Source: Methanothermobacter marburgensis str. Marburg (lineage in GTDB: Archaea > Methanobacteriota > Methanobacteria > Methanobacteriales > Methanothermobacteraceae). From it: DNA of 32,000 nucleotides. How positions within the stretch are numbered: position 1 is the stretch's first letter; each line of letters begins with the position of its first letter. The translations under genes and the position numbers were made by a program. Below, in pieces: positions 591 through 10,959 of the stretch. The notes under the pieces are model-generated. The model saw nothing but the letters and a program-made list of their open reading frames with translations. It was not told where the DNA came from and ran no database searches. The DNA lies in contig NC_014408.1 of NCBI RefSeq assembly GCF_000145295.1, forward strand, positions 660,001 through 692,000. Direction: 5' to 3'.

Positions 591-2663
591 TTAATGTGAT
601 CTCTCCTTTATGAGCTTCCTCACCTCGCCCATGAACTTTTCTTCACCGACACGTTTCATGGTTGATGCGAGCCTCTCCCTCTGCGGCTTACTTGCATACT
701 TGGTGTAGACACTGATAACAGCGTCTATGTATTCCAGTATCTCATCAACAGTGTCAACACGGGTCTTTATACCCTCAACCAGTTCTCTACCAGCCTTACC
801 GCCTATGTAAAGTATGTAACCCTCTTCTCTGGCCCTCCTTGCAGTGTGCGGGCACTCCCTTATGCATTTACCGCAGCCAACGCAGAGGTCATGGTTGGTG
901 TAGGATGTCTCGCCACGCACGCTTATGGCCTCCACCTTGCAGACCTCGAAGCACCTGCCGCAGCCGTTACAGATTTCCTCAACCGTCTCAGGGAATTCAA
1001 CACCCGCGACACCCACATCGTGGATCTGGGGCCTCATGCACCTGTTTGGACAGCCACTCACCGCTATCTTGAACTTGTAGGGTGCTGGCATCTCCCTGAA
1101 CCTCTCCTCTATGGCACTGCAGATTGCTGTGGTGTCTATGATCCCGCTTCCACAGTTCTCCCTACCTGGACAGGCAAGTGTGGCCCTTACAAGGGGGCCC
1201 TCTGAGCCTGTGAGGAGCCCTGCGGAGTTGAGTTCATCAGCGGCGTCCTCAACGTCAAAGCCACTCACATCATGGAGCTCATAGGATCCCCTGTTGGTGA
1301 CCTTGATCCTTGCACCGTATTTTTCGGCAATCCTCACAAGTTCTTTCACCTCTTGGGGGCTGTACCAGCCTGATGGCCGGGCCCTGACCCTTATGAAGTA
1401 GGTGCCATCGGCCCTCCTGGATACCCCAGGGTAATCTGAGGTCCAGTAGAAGGAGATGTATTCACCATTCTTTCTCCTTCTCTCAAGTTCCCTCTGGAAT
1501 CTTTTGAGTTTCAGGTCCCTCATCTTCTCTATTTTTGCGGTGTCTGCACCCTCCATGAGTTCAACTGCACCGGCTATTTCAGCGCCCCTCCTGGTTCTCA
1601 CTATGATGGTTGAGTAGCCTTCGGGACTTCCAGCGGAGCCCACAGAGACGTCTGCAAGGTGAGCGTCAAAGTCCCTGCAGGATCTGCAGCCCTCTGAGAT
1701 TCTGATGTCCATGAGGTTCAGGGTTTCCCTCCTATCACCAAGGTCAACCTCAAGCTTACCCCTCCTGATGTTGAATTTTTCAACGTCCTCCATTCTGATA
1801 CCATTTTCCCTCAGCACCTTTCTGAGGTCGCCATATTCGAATTTCTCGGTGCAGAAGAGGCCTATGAGGTAACGTATCTCGGGGAGTTTCACGGGTTTGC
1901 CCTTTCTTCCAAGTTCCAGGTCATGCTTTGCAAGGTAGGGGAAGTACTGGAGTTTCCTGAGGCCGTTTATCTGGCAGGGAAGCCCAACAACTGCCACCCT
2001 TTCAATTCCGAGTTCTCCAGCTGTTCTCAGTGCTTCAAGGGTGGATATGCTGTACTTTGACCCGCTTGTTTCCTCAAGGTCCTCTGCCGTCTGCACAAGG
2101 AGTGATACAGGTTTCCAGTGTTCGTCACCCACGACTATGGCGCCGTCGATTTCACCCTTCTCAAGGAGGTGCTTTAGGAAAGAGGTCACCACGCCACCGT
2201 CCTGGCCCCTGATGGGTCCCCTTCCATGGTAGACCTTTTCCTGGAACTTCTCCCTTATGCTGATCTGATAACCGTCTGAGGAGACCCTGGGGCATACCTC
2301 GAAGCACATACCATGGCCGTTTCTGAGGCACTCCTCTCTGAGCTCCGGGCGTCCGTCGAAGGATATGATGTTGTTGGGGCATATAACGGCGCAGGTACCG
2401 CACCTTGCGCAGATTCCTGACTCCACGATCTTTCCAGGTTTCCATTTCCTCTCTGATGGGTACATCTCTGCTATTTTCTCTGGTGGGCCCATCCTCTCCA
2501 GGGCCTCGGCTATCACCTCCTCGGTGACATCGGTTTTTCTTGATGCGGCTATTGCCTCTGCACTGTCAAGTATGTGGGTTTTGAGTTCACGGGCAACCTC
2601 CTCCCTTTCCTCTGGGGCTAGTCTAAGGGTCGCCCTTTCTATGAATTCATCAAGTTTATTCAT
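591..2663 (-). CDS. fsr: F420-dependent sulfite reductase (FrhB/FpoF-like half fused to a siroheme sulfite-reductase half) with an extra ~75-aa N-terminal helical module
   Basis: 690 aa. It has an N-terminal 2x[4Fe-4S] motif (CARCGTCAVICP.. CFEVCP) and an FrhB-like core (GGVVTSFLKHLL.. VGLPCQI.. GLFCTEKF). The C-terminal NiR/SiR-type domain has a Cys cluster (CPGRENCGSG.. SGCPNRC) and an inserted ferredoxin (CNGCGRCFEVC.. CVGCGKCIRECP). GGAGGA RBS precedes the start, and the ATG overlaps the padR stop (ATGA at 2660-2663). Confidence 0.8.
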   Translation of the reverse strand: MNKLDEFIERATLRLAPEEREEVARELKTHILDSAEAIAASRKTDVTEEVIAEALERMGPPEKIAEMYPSERKWKPGKIVESGICARCGTCAVICPNNIISFDGRPELREECLRNGHGMCFEVCPRVSSDGYQISIREKFQEKVYHGRGPIRGQDGGVVTSFLKHLLEKGEIDGAIVVGDEHWKPVSLLVQTAEDLEETSGSKYSISTLEALRTAGELGIERVAVVGLPCQINGLRKLQYFPYLAKHDLELGRKGKPVKLPEIRYLIGLFCTEKFEYGDLRKVLRENGIRMEDVEKFNIRRGKLEVDLGDRRETLNLMDIRISEGCRSCRDFDAHLADVSVGSAGSPEGYSTIIVRTRRGAEIAGAVELMEGADTAKIEKMRDLKLKRFQRELERRRKNGEYISFYWTSDYPGVSRRADGTYFIRVRARPSGWYSPQEVKELVRIAEKYGARIKVTNRGSYELHDVSGFDVEDAADELNSAGLLTGSEGPLVRATLACPGRENCGSGIIDTTAICSAIEERFREMPAPYKFKIAVSGCPNRCMRPQIHDVGVAGVEFPETVEEICNGCGRCFEVCKVEAISVRGETSYTNHDLCVGCGKCIRECPHTARRAREEGYILYIGGKAGRELVEGIKTRVDTVDEILEYIDAVISVYTKYASKPQRERLASTMKRVGEEKFMGEVRKLIKERSH

Positions 2664-3001
2664 TGATATTCCTCCATTATGGTTTCAATTTCATTGAGGG
2701 CCTGATTCACTGCCCTGAAAAATTCAAGCCATTTTTTTCTGACCTTCTTACCGTAATCTGTGATTCTGTAATATTTTCTGGGTCTTGCCTCACCTGTCAT
2801 CCAGCTGCTTTTGAGGATTCCCTCCCCCTCGAGTCTCCTCAGAAGGGGGTAGATGGTTCCCTCTTCGACTCTGAATCCTGATTCTTCAAGTTTTCTGACG
2901 ATTTCGTATCCGTAAAGTTCCCTTTCAAGGAGACAGACCACTGCGAGCTGTATGGCCCCGCGTCTTATTTCCTTTTCGAATCTTTCACATATGCCACCCA
3001 T
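2660..3001 (-). CDS. PadR-family winged-helix transcriptional regulator
   Basis: 113 aa. It shows the typical PadR signature LYGYEIVRKLEE..G...EGTIYPLLRRLEGEGIL....E.RPRKYYRITDYG. It is translationally coupled to fsr. Confidence 0.9.
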   Translation of the reverse strand: MGGICERFEKEIRRGAIQLAVVCLLERELYGYEIVRKLEESGFRVEEGTIYPLLRRLEGEGILKSSWMTGEARPRKYYRITDYGKKVRKKWLEFFRAVNQALNEIETIMEEYQ

Positions 3002-3019
3002 CTCATGACCCTCATATTA

Positions 3020-3048
3020 CACAGATATGTGTTGTGCACATTACTGTG
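3020..3048. promoter_or_regulatory. Candidate PadR operator (imperfect 11-bp inverted repeat)
   Basis: CACAGATATGT-N7-ACATTACTGTG matches at 9 of 11 positions per arm and contains an ATGT..ACAT core like known PadR boxes. It lies 19-47 bp upstream of the padR ATG. A further TACACAGAT copy sits at 3083-3091. Confidence 0.5.
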
Positions 3049-3258
3049 TAGTAAACAGTATATGAGCTTTGTGTCCTCACCCTACACAGATGAATCGGAT
3101 CGGGGTTCAGGGATAACTGGACACCTGTAACCGGTAAAATGACTCTTTTTGTTCATTGCCATGATGAATGCAGTCTCAGTGATTCAATAACCACAGTTTT
3201 ATTGTTTTTTCAAAAAATTTTTATGTTTAACCTCCTCAGATAGGTATGAGGTGTTCAG

Positions 3259-4914
3259 ATGGAGTTTGTCCCCTTTAAAAAGGATCTCAACATGAAAAAT
3301 ACTGTGTCCCATCTGATGGGGTTCTTTCTGATTCTCTTCTCATCCGTGGCACTCCTCATGATGGCTGGAGGTGGATGGTCCCCCTGGGACCTCCCCATTC
3401 TCCACATGTCTCTTGTGCTGCTTGGTGCATCGATAATTCTCGCCTGCTTCTCCCACAGAAGAACAGCACTTTCCCTATCCATAATGATAATCCCACTCCA
3501 GTTCATTCAATTTGCGGGATTTCAGGGTCTGCATACAGTTTTACCTCCACCCCTGCTGGCGGCCTATTCGGTCAGCCTGATTCTCCTTATCCGCAGACAC
3601 TACCATGCCGGGCAGACACTGGCATACATCACAGGGATCATGGCCTATGCCCTGGTGATGACCCACCTCACAGGTGTGGTGGAGGTTGTTGAGGCACTCA
3701 GGGTGGACCCCACCATTTCAGCCGAACTCCTCATGGCCGCTCTGGGGTTACTGGGCCTCTATCCCCAGAGGGGAGTCACTGAGCCACTCTTCTCAGGAAT
3801 GATGGGGGGATACACGGCACGGGTGCTCCTTGCAACCATGCTCACAGCCATAACGGTCACAGGAATCCTGATCCTGAGGGGCCGGGACCAGCTACCATTC
3901 CCGGCAGAGATATTCCTCCTTTCACTGACAGTGGCGCTCATCATAGTTACCATAACCTTCACAGCCTACAGGCTCAACACAGTTGACCATCAACGCCTCA
4001 TGAATGAAAGGGGGCTCAGGAGGACACGCAGATTCTTCAGGGATGTGGTTGAGAACCTTGAGGAGGCCGTTGCAGTCATCGATGAAGACGGCAATCCACT
4101 GCACCTCAACAGGGCAATGAAGAAACTTGGAATTGACTGCAGGCCCATTCATGATAGGTTCATGAATGCCAGGGTACCCTCATACATCAGGAGCCTTAAA
4201 GCAGGGGACAGAAACTTCACCGGATGGTACATTCCCCTGGATGAGGGGGCAATAATCTCCCTCACCGACATAACAGACCTAATGAGGACACAGGAGGAAC
4301 TCGAGCGGAACATCATGGAGAAGGATGCGCTGCTCCGGGAACTCCATCACCGGGTGAAGAATAACCTCCAGATAATCCTGAGCCTCATAAACATGCAGAT
4401 AAGATCCGCCGGTGAGGATGCAAGGGAGGCTCTCATCCGGACATCAACCAGAGTCCAGACACTGGCCGCCATCCACGAATCCGTCTATGGGCTGGGGAGC
4501 CTGGCAGAGGTTAAGATGCATGAGTGCATAATGAGGATATCAGAAAACCTCAGATCAGTATTTGATGCACTGGATGTTGAATTCCACATAGACGCCCCGC
4601 ATACCTTCAACGTTGAGACAGCCATGCCACTGGCCCTCATAGTAAATGAACTGATATCCAACTCCCTTCAGCATGCGTTTCCTCAGGGCAGAGGCACCGT
4701 GAAGGTTGAAATCAGCAGAATGAACTCAGAGTACTGTCTGAGGGTAATGGATGATGGTGTGGGGTTTTCAGGTGAAAAGAGGATGGGCCTCCAACTTGCA
4801 CTGAACCTCGCCAGGCAGATAGAGGGGGACCTCAGGATACTCCTCAGGGAGGATGGAGGGGGTACAGAGGTCACGTTACCCTTCAGGGAGCTTCACTACA
4901 GGAGGAGACTTTAA
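3259..4914 (+). CDS. Membrane-bound sensor histidine kinase (HisKA_2 type)
   Basis: 551 aa. It has multiple N-terminal hydrophobic helices and a PAS-like segment (FFRDVVENLEEAVAVIDEDG). The H-box is ELHHRVKNNLQIILSLI, and ATPase boxes are NELISNSLQHAF, MDDGVGF and GLQLALNLA. GAGGTG RBS at 3248-3253. No response regulator is adjacent. Confidence 0.85.
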   Translation: MEFVPFKKDLNMKNTVSHLMGFFLILFSSVALLMMAGGGWSPWDLPILHMSLVLLGASIILACFSHRRTALSLSIMIIPLQFIQFAGFQGLHTVLPPPLLAAYSVSLILLIRRHYHAGQTLAYITGIMAYALVMTHLTGVVEVVEALRVDPTISAELLMAALGLLGLYPQRGVTEPLFSGMMGGYTARVLLATMLTAITVTGILILRGRDQLPFPAEIFLLSLTVALIIVTITFTAYRLNTVDHQRLMNERGLRRTRRFFRDVVENLEEAVAVIDEDGNPLHLNRAMKKLGIDCRPIHDRFMNARVPSYIRSLKAGDRNFTGWYIPLDEGAIISLTDITDLMRTQEELERNIMEKDALLRELHHRVKNNLQIILSLINMQIRSAGEDAREALIRTSTRVQTLAAIHESVYGLGSLAEVKMHECIMRISENLRSVFDALDVEFHIDAPHTFNVETAMPLALIVNELISNSLQHAFPQGRGTVKVEISRMNSEYCLRVMDDGVGFSGEKRMGLQLALNLARQIEGDLRILLREDGGGTEVTLPFRELHYRRRL

Positions 4915-4996
4915 TAGGTGTGCTCTGTAACATTGATTTCTGCACGTCCTGAGGATTATAAATGTGTCCTGCAACATAACATGGCAGGGGATTCAT

Positions 4997-5587
4997 ATGC
5001 ACGTCTATATTCTCTTTGCACATCCATCCAGGAAGTCCTTTTCAAGGGAGGTCCTTGAGGCATTTACAGAGGGCCTCAGTGAAGCCGGGCACACATATGA
5101 GGTGGGGGACCTCTACAGGATGAACTTCAGGTCGGAGCTGAGTCAGGAGGAGTACCTCAGGGAGATCAGCCAGGAGGCGGGGTCACCATTACCAGAGGAT
5201 GTTATGGAGGAGCATGAGAGGATCGGGAGGGCCGATGCCCTTGCGTTCATCTATCCCCTCTGGTGGAGTGACTGCCCTGCGAAACTCAAGGGATGGTTTG
5301 ACAGGGTCTGGACCTACGGGTACGCCTACTTCTATGAGGATGGAGAGCGGGGTACGAGGATTGATATTGAAAAGGCTGTGGTGCTCTGCTCTGCAGGCCA
5401 CACAGAGGAAGACCTTGAGGGTACAGGCATTGCAGAGAGCATGCGCAGTGTCATGTTAGGTGACAGGCTGCTGGGGGTTGGTGTTAAGAATGTCACCATG
5501 GAGATCCTTGGGGGTATGGTGCCTGGGGATGACTCCTGCAGGGAGATAAACCTCATGAGGGCCCGCAGGGCAGGGAGAAACCTCTGA
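4997..5587 (+). CDS. Flavodoxin-fold NAD(P)H dehydrogenase (quinone)/FMN reductase family protein
   Basis: MHVYILFAHPSRKSFS.. and ADALAFIYPLWWSDCPAKLKGWFDRVWTYGYAY are typical of the Flavodoxin_2/NQO-like family. I prefer ATG 4997 over the upstream GTG 4964 in the track. Confidence 0.75.
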   Translation: MHVYILFAHPSRKSFSREVLEAFTEGLSEAGHTYEVGDLYRMNFRSELSQEEYLREISQEAGSPLPEDVMEEHERIGRADALAFIYPLWWSDCPAKLKGWFDRVWTYGYAYFYEDGERGTRIDIEKAVVLCSAGHTEEDLEGTGIAESMRSVMLGDRLLGVGVKNVTMEILGGMVPGDDSCREINLMRARRAGRNL

Positions 5588-5805
5588 GGAGAATAATTCA
5601 TTTTAAGGGGGTAATTTGACTGTGATTATCCTATCTTTCAAACCAGGAGGATGTTGCAGAACCTCCAGACACCTCTATAAATGCTGTTATAAGACAAGAT
5701 GTAAATATAGTAATACATACATTGCATTATTATGCCATTTAATAATATTTAATTATTTATAGTTCATACACAGATTTTAGGGTGTCACAGATCAGGGGTG
5801 ATACC

Positions 5806-6234
5806 ATGACCACAATGACCAGGATAAGCATGTCTCTTCCAAGTAAACTTCTTGAGGAATTTGATGAGGTACTGAGGAACCGGGGATACCAGTCAAGGTC
5901 CAAGGGTATAAGGGACGCCATAAAGGACTACATTGTCAGGTACAGGTGGATGAATGAGATGGAGGGTGAGAGGACAGGGATAGTCTCGGTGATCTACAAC
6001 CACCACACAGGGGCAATGGAGGAAATAGCCGACATACAGCACCACTACAGGGAGTACATAGACGCTGTCATGAGGGTTCACCTCACAGAAAAACATCGCC
6101 TTGAGGTCCTCGTGGTGAGGGGTGATGTTGCAGAGATACGTGAACTCACAGAGAGGATGATGGGTCTACGGGGAGTTGAACACGTGAGACTCACCAGTGT
6201 CTCAGCTGAAGAGGAGGTGGAATATGAGAGGTGA
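5806..6234 (+). CDS. nikR: Nickel-responsive regulator NikR (ribbon-helix-helix plus metal-binding domain)
   Basis: RISMSLPSKLLEEFDEVLRNRGYQSRSKGIRDAIKDYI is a CopG/RHH domain. It is followed by GIVSVIYNHH....IQHHY..... with His-rich metal ligands. The start is ambiguous between GTG 5782, ATG 5806 and ATG 5815. An AT-rich TATA region lies at 5700-5770. Confidence 0.85.
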   Translation: MTTMTRISMSLPSKLLEEFDEVLRNRGYQSRSKGIRDAIKDYIVRYRWMNEMEGERTGIVSVIYNHHTGAMEEIADIQHHYREYIDAVMRVHLTEKHRLEVLVVRGDVAEIRELTERMMGLRGVEHVRLTSVSAEEEVEYER

Positions 6235-6757: not shown

Positions 6758-7285
6758 TCACTCTATCTCCACCCCACATAAAGTCCCTGAGGGTGTTAAT
6801 AGGTTACCCCTGGCTGTTAAACCAAAGGAGACTATATCCTCAGGGTAGTATCCATCCTCAAATGCCCAATCTGTTGTTTTAAAGTAGGCGGTTTCTCCAG
6901 GTCTCAGAGTCTTCACTGTGGATGAATTGGTGAAGACCGGAGCCATTCCAAGGGCAATGACCTCCCCATATGAGTTATAGCCCTTGACCCATACATAGTC
7001 CAGTAGGAGTGTGGCCCTGTACCTGTTCTGGACCACCCCCTCCACCACGTAGCCTCCGCTGGGATCAACCAGCACTGTATAGTTGAGCACCTCTGCCTGA
7101 ACATCCCCCATGTGGAGGTTGTAGAAATAGGATGACCCATCGCTGTAACCGATGATGAACATCAGGAGCCCCCATATTATGATGAAGGATACCACTATGC
7201 TTGCCTTTGTGAAGGTCCCCCTCCTTCTCCACCAGCGCATGAAAAAGTTTCCATTATTTTCTTCTTCACGGAAATCCTCAGCCAT
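6758..7285 (-). CDS. Single-pass membrane protein with beta-rich ectodomain (paralogue 1 of a tandem pair)
   Basis: 175 aa. It has an N-terminal cytoplasmic tail with the WWRRRG motif, one TM helix (ASIVVSFIIIWGLLMFIIG), then GGYVVEGVVQNRY...VWVKGYNSYGEVI. This resembles FxLYD/DUF3426-style beta-sandwich ectodomains by pattern only. Confidence 0.6.
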   Translation of the reverse strand: MAEDFREEENNGNFFMRWWRRRGTFTKASIVVSFIIIWGLLMFIIGYSDGSSYFYNLHMGDVQAEVLNYTVLVDPSGGYVVEGVVQNRYRATLLLDYVWVKGYNSYGEVIALGMAPVFTNSSTVKTLRPGETAYFKTTDWAFEDGYYPEDIVSFGLTARGNLLTPSGTLCGVEIE

Positions 7286-7298
7286 TCAGATCACCTTT

Positions 7299-7784
7299 CT
7301 ATGCCCATCCGTAACCGGAACATTCTGTTTTAATCCCAATGATGATATCATCGGGGTCGTGACCATCCAGTATGGGTCCCTCCCCCCTGAACTTCACCTT
7401 CTCACCTGGCCTGATTTCCCCTGAAACGGTTATGAATGCGGGGACATACAGAACCATTTCTCCACTGGAATCAAAGCCCTTCACTTCCAGGCTCGGGTTG
7501 AGCAATATGGGTTTATCATAGTTGTTCTGGATTACCCCCTGGATCTCATATAATCCATCCTGGCCCTTCTGGATTGTGTAGTTCACAACGTTCACCTGGA
7601 AGGAGTCCTTTTCGTATTCTATTGCTCCATCAAGACCCTTATCGTAACCATAGGAATAGGCGGCGGCTGACCAGATGATTACCCCAAGGACAATGATGGC
7701 TGCCCTTGTTAGTGGTCCCCTGCGGTTCCACCAGCCGGCAAACTTTCCAGTTTTCCTATCACTACCATTGGAATCCATCGACAT
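7299..7784 (-). CDS. Single-pass membrane protein with beta-rich ectodomain (paralogue 2)
   Basis: 161 aa with the same layout: WWNRRG, a TM helix (AAIIVLGVIIWSAAAY), then LYEIQGVIQNNY...LEVKGFDSSGEMV. It is 13 nt upstream of paralogue 1 on the same strand. Confidence 0.6.
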   Translation of the reverse strand: MSMDSNGSDRKTGKFAGWWNRRGPLTRAAIIVLGVIIWSAAAYSYGYDKGLDGAIEYEKDSFQVNVVNYTIQKGQDGLYEIQGVIQNNYDKPILLNPSLEVKGFDSSGEMVLYVPAFITVSGEIRPGEKVKFRGEGPILDGHDPDDIIIGIKTECSGYGWA

Positions 7785-8023
7785 TTAACCACCTTATAAC
7801 TGAACAGTAATAGTATTGAATCATACAATTTAAATTTTTATATTTTTATTTCATCATTAAAACTTAACATGGCAAATAAAAATCTGTGATTGGAGGACGG
7901 TTATGGTCCTGGAAAGCTGACTTCCCTAAATTGAGGATAATGACTGGTGTGTCAGGAGCATTCTCATTTTTGTTTATAATTCTTAGCTGAAAAAGAGGGA
8001 TCACGTTACTTGGTTTTTCTTTT

Positions 8024-8464
8024 TTATATTTGAGGGGCTTCTGTGGGTTCAATAATGTATGTTGCATTTAATGTTTCTATGATGTGCTTTGCAACGTCTT
8101 CAGATCCTTCACCGTATACTACAAGGAAGACAGTATTTATTTTTTGGAAAATATAGGCTCCTCCATGATCAACTTTATATTTATAGCAGGTTACTCCTCC
8201 AATTTTTTCTTCACCAACATACTCTGCGCTCTGCCCATACCATGATTTGAAACTTTCTAGATCCTCAAGGGTGGGATTGATGAAGATTCTACCATCACCC
8301 TCCCTTTCTGTTAGGCTTACGTCATCCAGTATTGGCATGGCCTCCCAGTTTTCAGGGTATTCGAATGACATATTCTCATTAGTAAATTTTTGGTATTTGG
8401 TGGCGCAACCTGCAGTGGTGATAACGAGGGATATGAGGATTATTATGAGGAGATTTCTATTCAT
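8024..8464 (-). CDS. Lipoprotein, intact paralogue of the frameshifted gene at 52-550
   Basis: 146 aa. Signal peptide plus lipobox MNRNLLIIILISLVITTAGC, then KYQKFTNENMSFEYPENWE. The FxYPxxW motif is reminiscent of PsbP/DcrB-like folds, but this is a weak assignment. Confidence 0.65.
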   Translation of the reverse strand: MNRNLLIIILISLVITTAGCATKYQKFTNENMSFEYPENWEAMPILDDVSLTEREGDGRIFINPTLEDLESFKSWYGQSAEYVGEEKIGGVTCYKYKVDHGGAYIFQKINTVFLVVYGEGSEDVAKHIIETLNATYIIEPTEAPQI

Positions 8465-8549
8465 CTGTCATCATCTCTAGGTTATATTTATAATATATAC
8501 CTCTAAATATATTATATGCATATATATAATTCAAAGTTAGGAAGGGGTG

Positions 8550-9017
8550 ATGCATATTAATGGAAAAATCGTGATTGTTGGAGTGTCTCTTATATTGTTA
8601 TATTTTGCCATTGGAATTATTTTTCCAACAAAAACCTATCATGATTCAAAGGTCGGTGTTTCATTTGATATACCTCGAGATTGGGAGGTAAAAGATGACT
8701 GGGTCCGTACGCCTGATGGTAGGATGGCCTTTTCATATGAATCTGGACTCGTTTCCTCTGAACCTGGTACGTTATTCCCTGCGACTTTGGATCAGGAACT
8801 GCAAGAGACACAACAGGTTAAGGCTGAGCTTGGAGAACCTGTATTGAGTCATGGTTATACGAGTATAGATGGTAATCCTGCTGTATACACTGTAACAAGC
8901 ACGAATTATCGCTATTATACGATAAAGAACGGTAAAGGTTATTATTTTGACTTTAATAGGAATATTGTGGATGATGAGGTGATAAAAAAGGTGGTTGAAT
9001 CGATAAGGTTAGATTAG
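8550..9017 (+). CDS. Membrane-anchored member of the same FxxPxxWE family
   Basis: N-terminal anchor IVIVGVSLILLYFAIGIIF, then VGVSFDIPRDWEV. AGGAAGGGG RBS lies upstream. ATG 8550 is one codon inside the tracked GTG 8547. It is divergent from 8024-8464 across a TATA-rich spacer. Confidence 0.6.
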   Translation: MHINGKIVIVGVSLILLYFAIGIIFPTKTYHDSKVGVSFDIPRDWEVKDDWVRTPDGRMAFSYESGLVSSEPGTLFPATLDQELQETQQVKAELGEPVLSHGYTSIDGNPAVYTVTSTNYRYYTIKNGKGYYFDFNRNIVDDEVIKKVVESIRLD

Positions 9018-9084
9018 AGAATTGAGGATACTTACTTATCTACTCTATTTTGTTTTTAAGGGTTATCTAGTCTAAGTAGTTCAA

Positions 9085-10959
9085 TTATTCCATTTTTAAC
9101 TGTTCTAAAATTCTTTTGGCATTGTTGGCAAGTTCTTTCTGGGAGGAAAGTTTTTCTAATCTCCTTATAAGGTCTTCTCTTTCATTTTTATCTAATTTAT
9201 CTACTCTAACGAAATCCTGCAGGTTGAAACGGGGCGTAGTTCTTTTGATGAATTCCACTAATAAGTGGTCGTCTTTCATCAATTCTCTTATGTAGGGGTC
9301 AACTCCATAGGGCTCTATAACGTTCCATAATTCTATGATATTCCCAAATGTATCAGGATAGAATAAACCGTGCAGGTCTGTCTGAGCTAGCCGGTGCAAT
9401 TTCTCAATTAAAAGATTGATAAGTGATTCCAGTTCTTTTTCCCCCAGAACCTGTAATTTTTCCTCTCCTTGAGTTGCAAAAGTATATAGAGCTAGGTAGA
9501 TACTCTGTCCATTTCTTATAGATTTCTTGATGACTTGGAGTCTCCTATCTGTTTCCATTTTTCTTAATAGTTTGAAGATTATCTCACATGAAAGAGAACA
9601 ACATCCATAGAAATCAGGATGGTTAAACTCTATATCTAAAAGGGTGGCTAGTACGTTTACTATATTTTCAGGGGGGATCTCATCAACATGAATATTTAAA
9701 AATTTCAGGTAGAGGAAATTATCCTTAGAAATGATCTTTTTAAGGGCCTTAGAATCCTCTGTGGCTTTAATTAATTGTCTGATTTGATCTGACGATAAAT
9801 TTAGACTTTCATTTATGGAAAGTTTGAAGTATGTATCAAAATTTTCTACGGTACAAATACGCTTTTCTTTTCTAAGTTCATCGTAAGGCCAAGTAATGTT
9901 ATTTAGAAGAGGAAATAATGATTTCAGTATATTTTTTGCGTTGTTATCCGCCTTTTTATAGATTTCCTTCATCTTTTTAGTAGCTTTTTCATAGAGAGGG
10001 TTAAGAGTACCTAGTGATGGATAACTTGTAAAGGACTCTCTATTTTCATATATTTCCTTGTATAGTTTAGGTTCGAATAATTCGAGGATCGTTATATTGG
10101 CCAGGTCCTCTTTGTTTGTTTCTTCTCCAATGGCGTTGAATTTGAATTTTAGAAGATTCATGTACTTTTTAACATTCCTCATATTTTTAAGGTAGGGTAA
10201 TGTATCCTCAATATTGATGTCCTCTTTAAATAGCTCCTTTAATTCTGATTCTAATATCTCCCTTATCTCTTTGGAACCTAATGGTGGTATTTCAAAGGGA
10301 ACGTGAATTATTTTTTCAAGATATTCCTCGCCGTCACCTTCTTGAACCTTTTCAAGGGCTTTTACAACTGTTTTTTTATCAAATGAACTTATGTATACTG
10401 TGTTTGGTAGATCAACAATTTTAATCATCTGGAAAATTTGACGTATTTCTTCTGCTGTTAATCTATCAATATCATCTATGACTATAACTAGTTTTATGTT
10501 GGCATTTTCTACCGATTTGTCAAGGTCATCTTTGATTTTTTCTAGATTTTCTGGAGAAGATTTAGAAGATTTTATGTTATATTTAATATTAAGGCCTAAT
10601 TGAACGCCTATTTGATCTGGAACTAATTTACTAAGATATTTATCTAATTTTTCTTTGATTTCATTGCCAAGATTATTTCTTAATTCTTCAAAAAAATTTA
10701 AAAGAAGAGCTTCTTGTCCTGAGAACAACCAGGGGTTAAATTTGATTATTTTCAGGTTGGTTTTATTGCTTTCTTCTAAGTGTTCTGTAATCATGTTGAT
10801 GATGGATGTCTTGCCAGATCCCCATTCTCCAATAATGCCTAAAACAAGACATGAACTATCTTCATAGGCCAGTATTGAATCTGAAACATATTTTGCAAAT
10901 TCCCGACGTCCTAGTTTATCTTCGGCACTTGTTTTTATGGGTTCATCTGCATGAAACAT
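9085..10959 (-). CDS. KAP-family P-loop NTPase
   Basis: 624 aa. N-terminal DKLGRREFAKYVSDSI is followed by Walker A GIIGEWGSGKTS and Walker B KLVIVIDDIDRL, then a long helical C-terminal region. This order and spacing are characteristic of KAP NTPases. The gene is very AT-rich. Confidence 0.8.
   Translation of the reverse strand: MFHADEPIKTSAEDKLGRREFAKYVSDSILAYEDSSCLVLGIIGEWGSGKTSIINMITEHLEESNKTNLKIIKFNPWLFSGQEALLLNFFEELRNNLGNEIKEKLDKYLSKLVPDQIGVQLGLNIKYNIKSSKSSPENLEKIKDDLDKSVENANIKLVIVIDDIDRLTAEEIRQIFQMIKIVDLPNTVYISSFDKKTVVKALEKVQEGDGEEYLEKIIHVPFEIPPLGSKEIREILESELKELFKEDINIEDTLPYLKNMRNVKKYMNLLKFKFNAIGEETNKEDLANITILELFEPKLYKEIYENRESFTSYPSLGTLNPLYEKATKKMKEIYKKADNNAKNILKSLFPLLNNITWPYDELRKEKRICTVENFDTYFKLSINESLNLSSDQIRQLIKATEDSKALKKIISKDNFLYLKFLNIHVDEIPPENIVNVLATLLDIEFNHPDFYGCCSLSCEIIFKLLRKMETDRRLQVIKKSIRNGQSIYLALYTFATQGEEKLQVLGEKELESLINLLIEKLHRLAQTDLHGLFYPDTFGNIIELWNVIEPYGVDPYIRELMKDDHLLVEFIKRTTPRFNLQDFVRVDKLDKNEREDLIRRLEKLSSQKELANNAKRILEQLKME

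Follow-up and report, generated by a model that had tools for sequence, protein, structure and literature searches.

The padR-fsr gene pair

The archaeon Methanothermobacter marburgensis str. Marburg carries two overlapping genes, padR and fsr, that encode a PadR-type transcriptional regulator and an F420-dependent sulfite reductase (Fsr), and the analysis presented here indicates that the first ~70 residues of this Fsr are a HAAS module, the kind of domain that accompanies stand-alone PadR regulators. The window analyzed is the whole 32-kb stretch that contains these genes (32,000 nucleotides, forward-strand positions 660,001 to 692,000 of NC_014408.1), and all positions below are those of this stretch; related loci that were compared carry labels such as L014.

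The padR gene (2660-3001, minus strand) is an open reading frame (ORF) of 113 codons whose product, judged by its sequence, is a stand-alone winged-helix regulator of the short PadR subfamily, whose members have ~110 aa and a single C-terminal helix; Pfam PadR (PF03551) matches residues 24-89 of 113 with 77.1 bits (E 1.1e-21). It is followed by fsr (591-2663, minus strand), a 690-aa ORF, and the two share the ATGA overlap that a preliminary description of this DNA had reported and that can be read directly from the sequence (2660-2663, minus strand): the padR stop codon TGA occupies 2660-2662 and the fsr ATG occupies 2661-2663, an overlap of 4 nt. A Shine-Dalgarno sequence for fsr, GGAGG (2671-2675, minus strand), lies within the 3' end of padR, 7 nt ahead of the ATG, and padR is preceded by its own ribosome-binding site, GAGGG (3009-3013, minus strand), with GGAGG-like sites at the equivalent place in related loci. 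In those loci padR and fsr either overlap or are separated by 0-7 nt.

The PadR encoded in the window is 99% identical to that of Methanothermobacter sp. DP, and Cys23 is invariant in 13/13 PadRs compared. Past Methanothermobacter and Methanobacterium, the nearest homologs with a named source are bacterial (Salinispira, Chloroflexi 'YwzG') at ~50% identity, which suggests that the HAAS-PadR dyad entered the Methanobacteriaceae by horizontal transfer.

The catalytic body of Fsr (aa 73-690 plus stop; 591-2447, minus strand) was delimited by alignment, Pfam matches and cysteine positions. It consists of a ferredoxin domain, an F420H2 oxidase domain and a siroheme sulfite reductase domain with an inserted ferredoxin; Pfam recognizes FrhB_FdhB_N/C, NIR_SIR_ferr, NIR_SIR and Fer4, the cluster cysteines are invariant in 71 Fsr sequences, and residues 73-687 align with the solved structures 7NP8 (E 2.3e-296) and 7NPA. 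By its architecture the protein is a complete group I Fsr, and its ~66-67% identity to close Methanocaldococcus homologs of the characterized enzymes makes F420H2-dependent sulfite reduction its predicted activity. Both MTH280 and MTBMA_c07290 are annotated as F420-dependent sulfite reductase (PMC3087415). Fsr is a homotetramer in which the N-terminal ferredoxin domain holds relay clusters 2 and 3 (PMC10229431).

A HAAS module at the N-terminus of Fsr

Since the solved Fsr structures 7NP8 and 7NPA align with this protein only from residue 73 (which pairs with their residue 3), it has ~72 extra N-terminal residues (nt 2448-2663). The preliminary description had proposed that such an extension is absent from characterized Fsr and that it resembles DUF1700/HAAS modules; the alignment bears out the first proposal, a profile search bears out the second, and the peptide quoted there agrees with the translation of the ORF. 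Pfam HAAS (PF22564) matches residues 10-66 with 34.3 bits in the context of the whole protein and 40.6 bits (E 3.4e-10) when the segment is searched in isolation, relative to a curated gathering cut-off of 27 bits. On the combined evidence of the Pfam match, AlphaFold2 prediction, alignment and substitution rates, the module is placed at aa 1-67 (2463-2663, minus strand).

In the published description, a HAAS domain is a succession of helices, the last of which is kinked at a GxP motif (PMC11237479). AlphaFold2 predicts helices at residues 3-12, 17-41, 48-58 and 61-67 of Fsr, with a break at G59-P60, so that the modeled N-terminal fold corresponds to this description, the last core helix being kinked at the GxP. 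Confidence, expressed as the predicted local distance difference test score (pLDDT), is 75-88 by 10-residue blocks over residues 1-60 of the whole-protein model and averages 91.4 for the module modeled alone; the lowest value of the N-terminal region (~70) falls on the block 61-70. The adjoining segment (2436-2462, minus strand), which carries a conserved YP motif also found in relatives that join HAAS to transmembrane (TM) helices, is not helical in the model of the whole protein. A Foldseek search of the Protein Data Bank with the HAAS model gave nothing significant (best E 1.8, histone-fold-like), a sequence search of that database with the HAAS profile gave no match, and a scan of NCBIfam returned only a sub-threshold 'permease prefix domain 1' (24.7 bits; cut-off 30). 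Because no solved structure resembles the module, its assignment to HAAS is based on three kinds of evidence: the match to the profile, the kink predicted in the helix and the genes around it.

The module is also well conserved. In an alignment of 12 sequences from Methanothermobacter and Methanobacterium, HILDSAxAIA does not vary and MGxPEK (MG[PST]PEK) hardly does, and the ratio of nonsynonymous to synonymous substitution rates (dN/dS) for codons 1-68 is 0.10, 0.13, 0.22 and 0.08 in four pairs; the HAAS codons are under purifying selection.

A start at Met67 (MYP...), by analogy with the MYEWKL start of Methanococcales Fsr, was considered and rejected, since MYP is a motif of the HAAS family that is conserved in stand-alone HAAS-TM relatives as well, the codons upstream of it are under purifying selection, and GGAGG precedes the ATG at 2663 with none before Met67.

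Distribution of the module and its linkage to padR

An N-terminal extension of ~70 residues is present in 63/120 Fsr homologs, and all the named ones belong to the Methanobacteriaceae; the Fsr of Methanococcales, Methanothermus and Methanohalobium begins directly at MYEWKL. Within the extended group, 11 of 12 N-termini from Methanothermobacter and Methanobacterium match Pfam HAAS at E <= 0.01, whereas none of 28 from Methanobrevibacter and Methanosphaera match HAAS in Pfam and the GxP and HILDSA motifs are gone from them. These degenerate extensions are still homologous to those of the HAAS-bearing group by profile-profile comparison (98% probability, E 1e-13).

Linkage was surveyed in loci drawn from GTDB genomes and metagenome contigs. 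Wherever the HAAS signature is intact, padR abuts or overlaps fsr (15/15 places, representing 11 distinct sequences from Methanothermobacter and Methanobacterium). The flanking genes differ between loci, and it is therefore padR-fsr as a pair that is conserved. No padR was found within 4 kb of fsr in 24 loci with a degenerate extension (Methanobrevibacter and Methanosphaera), and none adjoins fsr in 15 loci that have no extension. An iterated PadR hidden Markov model, applied to the surroundings of both classes, detected a single winged helix-turn-helix (wHTH) gene, 3 kb upstream of fsr in L014 and of the ArsR type. The genes immediately upstream of fsr in these two classes appear by eye to be unrelated to PadR (three were scanned with Pfam, two of them without a match) and look membrane-protease-like, PHP-like, HAD-like or FdhD-like. 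Intact HAAS signature and padR adjacency thus co-occur without exception in the loci examined. The preliminary description had tied the extension to padR, and this holds for the intact HAAS module; it does not hold for the extension as such, which Methanobrevibacter and Methanosphaera retain in degenerate form without padR.

The degenerate extension evolves under constraint of its own: the same ratio (omega) is 0.15-0.37 in 7/8 Methanobrevibacter and Methanosphaera pairs that gave a value (in most of these seven, 2-4 times that of the enzyme core) and 0.85 in the eighth. In a rough neighbor-joining tree, two short Fsr forms are nested within the degenerate clade, which suggests that the extension can be lost; in that tree the Fsr proteins with an intact HAAS module form one clade.

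Several features of related fsr loci were recorded in the course of this survey. One Methanobacteriota metagenome-assembled genome (MAG) contains tandem fsr copies, both with the long N-terminal extension (L026, 1732-3774 and 3974-6067). In L026 (1282-1713) and L052 (3493-3918) the place held elsewhere by padR, directly upstream of fsr, is taken by a gene for a conserved 141-143-aa protein that Pfam does not recognize. Directly downstream of fsr in the Methanobrevibacter loci L033, L035, L043 and L051 is a conserved pair of genes (~721 aa and ~392-403 aa), the second of which has a Cys-rich ferredoxin-type motif in L033, L035 and L051; in L036 only the first gene (~721 aa) is on the contig, and the pair may be part of an fsr-linked operon. 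In two MAG assemblies (L001, 4001-6103; L045, 3995-6056) fsr is split into two ORFs below an intact padR, which may reflect frameshifts or assembly errors.

Origin of the module

The closest relatives of the module, found with a profile of the Fsr N-termini, are small archaeal proteins that share the sequence ELKTHILDSAD and continue into two TM helices or DUF5518. Their genes directly follow PadR genes, and the PadRs concerned are 50-55% identical to the PadR of the window, which is as close as the fsr-linked PadRs of Methanobacterium are; one such locus also has the same promoter layout, a TATA box plus TACTGT-N7-ACAG. An exhaustive profile search of 1.84 billion representative sequences gave 131 matches. 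The top non-Fsr matches that were scanned were HAAS-DUF5518, HAAS-Toastrack, HAAS-DUF1648, or HAAS followed by sequence without a Pfam match, and the architectures of the relatives overall comprise HAAS-2TM, HAAS-DUF5518, HAAS-DUF1648 and HAAS-Toastrack. The Fsr cluster is the only enzyme fusion identified among the 131 matches, as judged from the lengths of the matches and from Pfam scans of a sample of 11. Such a fusion is an unusual HAAS architecture, because the nearest relatives are membrane or Toastrack proteins, and the earlier proposal that the module is attached here to a redox enzyme in place of a membrane anchor accords with the arrangement found, in which HAAS residues 1-67 are followed by the Fsr body.

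Because these relatives are small membrane or Toastrack proteins encoded after a PadR gene, the sequence comparisons suggest that a local padR-HAAS cassette recombined onto fsr. In the simplest history, duplication of a resident padR-HAAS-membrane cassette was followed by the joining of its HAAS part, an exon-like module, to fsr, and padR and the promoter came with it.

Promoter and candidate operators

A candidate archaeal TATA box, CTCATATAC (3058-3066, minus strand), was located upstream of padR by TATA-anchored comparison and alignment, and its ATATAC is invariant in 11 fsr-linked padR promoters, 55-78 nt ahead of the ATG. The best operator candidate, here called O1, is a 19-bp palindrome, TACTGTTTAcTACACAGTA (3042-3060), that shares three bases with the TATA box (the TAC at the end of the box). 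In the window its 9-nt arms are complementary at 8/9 positions (89%). When the 11 upstream regions are anchored on ATATAC, the consensus TACTGTGTG-c-CACACAGTA follows it directly; the arms pair at 6-9 of 9 positions in all 11 promoters, a range that only 3% of background positions reach (6 or better), the palindrome is perfect in L086, and in L024 both arms have changed with the symmetry kept. A search of the 32-kb window that allowed at most one mismatch returned O1 as the sole exact match to the consensus (0.11 expected by chance). The only further O1-like sequence in the window has one mismatch (TACTACAAGGAAGACAGTA, 8117-8135), lies in or near an ORF at 8024-8464, is not compelling and is probably a chance match.

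A second palindrome, O2 (3015-3053), has 17-nt arms (3015-3031 and 3037-3053) that are 82% complementary around a core ATGTG-N5-CACAT (3027-3041), and it overlaps the right arm of O1. The preliminary description had put forward 3020-3048 within this element as a plausible operator. The palindrome is real, and the other Methanothermobacter locus has it in almost the same form, but across genera it is conserved only loosely (in Methanobacterium as an ATGT..ACAT-like element of variable spacing), and the overlapping, TATA-abutting sequence at 3042-3060 is the better candidate.

Regulators of the short PadR subfamily, such as Bacillus PadR and LmrR, bind palindromic operators of the ATGT-N8-ACAT type at the promoters they control. 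Both palindromes upstream of padR are rich in TGT/ACA (TACTGT-N7-ACAGTA in O1, ATGT-N7-ACAT in O2), with a spacing unlike the N8 of that type. Archaeal repressors that bind between the TATA box and the transcription start, or over the start, block recruitment of RNA polymerase; from the usual archaeal TATA-to-start distance, O1 probably lies between the TATA box and the start and O2 over the start.

Three copies of the heptamer CTGTGTA or its complement lie around the padR promoter, the first upstream of the TATA box (3083-3089, minus strand), the second as the right arm of O1 (3044-3050) and the third before the ribosome-binding site (3018-3024). The upstream copy, recognized by direct reading as a half-site that recurs in inverted orientation, is also present in L001. 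This pattern hints at several putative PadR half-sites around the promoter.

A proposed trigger enzyme

The published account of HAAS domains places them obligately beside a stand-alone PadR gene and N-terminal to sensor domains that are either membrane-bound or intracellular (PMC11237479); the preliminary description had also noted that HAAS-type proteins are classically encoded immediately downstream of PadR repressors. Defined in 2024, the HAAS-PadR dyad is a proposed alternative to two-component systems, and the partners listed for it are multi-TM domains, Toastrack and pentapeptide repeats (PMC11237479). The padR-fsr pair has two features by which such dyads are recognized, namely an adjoining gene for a stand-alone PadR-like wHTH protein and a HAAS domain N-terminal to an effector domain. 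It also shares the gene order, PadR then HAAS, and the GxP kink with known dyads, including the Listeria pairs LltR-Lmo0600(DUF1700)-Lmo0601 and LstR-Lmo0421, the latter a HAAS-FtsW/RodA protein (PMC11237479; PMC6624303), and by sequence its PadR and HAAS are closest to dyads in Methanobacterium-like archaea. It differs from all of these in that the partner of HAAS is not a multi-TM, Toastrack or pentapeptide-repeat domain but a 620-aa soluble, cofactor-rich, tetrameric redox enzyme.

The reading favoured here, at a probability of roughly 0.5, is that padR-fsr is a self-contained, autoregulated two-gene cassette in which sulfite turnover, or oxidation of the iron-sulfur relay, alters the contact between HAAS and PadR and so lifts repression. 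It follows the general proposal for HAAS-PadR dyads (PMC11237479), with the enzyme in place of the sensor domain, and is supported by the HAAS and PadR profile matches, the linkage in 15/15 places, a HAAS dN/dS of 0.08-0.22, and a palindrome at a fixed position in two genera. The more specific proposal that in Methanothermobacter and Methanobacterium Fsr acts as a trigger enzyme, which reports sulfite turnover or an oxidized relay to PadR through HAAS, is a tentative one, to which somewhat less than even odds are given.

In this proposed mechanism, PadR dimers would bind O1 (3042-3060) and the TGT/ACA-rich elements beside it, in the stretch from the TATA box to the transcription start, and so block transcription of padR-fsr. 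Listeria LltR and LstR repress their own HAAS-encoding operons ~100-150-fold (PMC6624303), and by analogy PadR probably represses padR-fsr from O1 and O2; the palindrome at the gene's own promoter suggests autoregulation. The HAAS module, tethered by a linker of ~9 residues to the ferredoxin domain that bears [4Fe-4S] relay clusters 2 and 3, would contact PadR through its third helix, the one kinked at the GxP. On exposure of the enzyme to sulfite, or on oxidation of its relay, this contact would change, PadR would be released from the DNA or reconfigured on it, and more Fsr would be made, so that the enzyme would serve as its own sensor where ordinary HAAS-PadR dyads use a membrane or Toastrack sensor domain. 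A contact that depends on the state of the enzyme is favored because PadR and HAAS-Fsr come from one mRNA and a signal-independent contact would achieve little.

Trigger enzymes include PutA and the glutamine synthetase that acts on TnrA/GlnR. The logic proposed for padR-fsr would be analogous, in that an enzyme reports its substrate or redox state to the transcriptional control of its own gene. PutA, however, has a DNA-binding domain of its own, whereas here a separate PadR would bind DNA and the enzyme carries only an adaptor module. A bicistronic padR-adaptor operon of the same kind is Listeria LftR-LftS, in which a PadR is paired with a DUF1048 protein of the HAAS superfamily and genetic evidence supports a functional link between the two genes (PMC4517056); it differs in that LftS is a small stand-alone protein, the targets are drug-efflux genes and the system is bacterial. 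The group I Fsr proteins of Methanococcales (MtFsr, 7NP8; MjFsr, 7NPA; MJ0870) have the same domain order and the same cluster and siroheme cysteines and are collinear over residues 73-687, but lack both the ~72 N-terminal residues and the overlapping regulator gene found here.

Several points weigh against the favored reading. Since the Fsr proteins with an intact HAAS form a single clade, their co-occurrence with padR may reflect only one or two evolutionary events. The extension is kept under purifying selection where padR is not adjacent, so it may have a role independent of PadR. Methanothermococcus is grown on sulfite to boost Fsr expression (PMC10229431), and because Methanococcales raise Fsr on sulfite with neither HAAS nor PadR, another route of control exists. 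The model of signaling from HAAS to PadR is itself a computational proposal (PMC11237479). With PadR and Fsr on one transcript, a signal-independent contact would be expected to cancel out, which makes signal dependence an assumption of the model.

In one alternative, the enzyme senses nothing: PadR itself would detect the inducer (a small molecule, sulfite or an oxidant), and HAAS would bind it constitutively, titrating or stabilizing PadR so that the gain of the autoregulatory loop is set in proportion to the Fsr made. Direct ligand binding is common among PadR regulators, as with phenolic acids for PadR and drugs for LmrR, and the invariant Cys23 and the co-translation of PadR and HAAS-Fsr from one mRNA through the ATGA overlap are both consistent with such a scheme. 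However, PadRs of this clade also serve HAAS-TM and HAAS-Toastrack partners and have identical invariant residues, so nothing in PadR is specific to sulfite; moreover, if co-expressed partners were in constitutive 1:1 contact, it is not obvious what regulation would gain. HAAS is, in addition, consistently fused to domains of the sensor type (PMC11237479). Sensing by PadR with Fsr as a measure of dosage is considered unlikely.

An equally unlikely alternative is that the extension is a structural or vestigial appendage, acquired by accidental recombination with a padR-HAAS cassette; PadR would regulate the operon independently of it, and the helices would now serve folding, stability, oligomerization or partner docking of Fsr. 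The Methanobrevibacter and Methanosphaera proteins fit this well, since their extension is under purifying selection with neither HAAS signature nor adjacent padR, but it is precisely HILDSAxAIA and the GxP, invariant or nearly so and at a dN/dS of 0.08-0.22 beside padR, that have decayed where padR is missing, and an extension of this kind can apparently be dispensed with, to judge from the two short forms that branch within the degenerate clade. A last alternative reverses the direction: PadR would control the enzyme through HAAS and might, for instance, keep Fsr inactive or at the nucleoid. The same protein-protein contact would formally permit this, but it is very improbable given that characterized Fsr enzymes work without such a partner and that PadR proteins are DNA-binding regulators.

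Flanking genes

Divergent from padR, and sharing with it an intergenic region of 257 bp, is a gene for a multi-TM histidine kinase of the HisKA_2/HWE type (3259-4914, plus strand). The Methanobacterium loci L002, L053 and L080 have instead a long convergent ORF just downstream of fsr, which in L080 and L081 encodes a PAS-HisKA kinase; the recurrence of a kinase beside padR-fsr may be due to chance. Beyond the kinase in the window (4964-6234, plus strand) are a flavodoxin-like FMN reductase (4964-5587) and the nickel-responsive regulator NikR (5782-6234). The region 6758-10959 (minus strand), in which a KAP-family P-loop NTPase (9085-10959) lies near three ORFs without a Pfam match (6758-8464), may be a mobile or defense-type island.

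Implications

The HAAS-PadR dyad and Fsr are both of known kinds, and their fusion is apparently undescribed in the literature. No paper in the indexed literature combines Fsr with PadR, the Fsr papers, which include structural work and an evolutionary survey, make no mention of the N-terminal extension or of PadR, and the literature searched names no regulator for the sulfite-induced Fsr of methanogens. Because the automatic annotation of Pfam already marks HAAS on these Fsr proteins, the architecture is visible in databases, although it seems to have gone without description.

It is worth pointing out that a candidate repressor, operator and sensor lie together within ~2.5 kb in Methanothermobacter, a genus in wide use for biochemical work on methanogenesis (PMC3087415), so that control of sulfite detoxification in a methanogen becomes testable. 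The known partners of HAAS, being membrane proteins, are difficult to study; a soluble enzyme that carries a HAAS module, for which there are crystal structures and whose redox states and substrate are defined, offers a convenient in vitro model for HAAS-PadR signaling. The comparison with Methanobrevibacter provides a natural experiment, in which padR is gone and the HAAS motifs have decayed, pointing to residues that are important for the contact. If the proposed mechanism is true, padR-fsr would be the first transcription switch responsive to sulfite or redox state to be defined in a methanogen, as well as the first HAAS-PadR pair to have a soluble, structurally solved enzyme as its sensor, and HAAS signaling would become testable in vitro.

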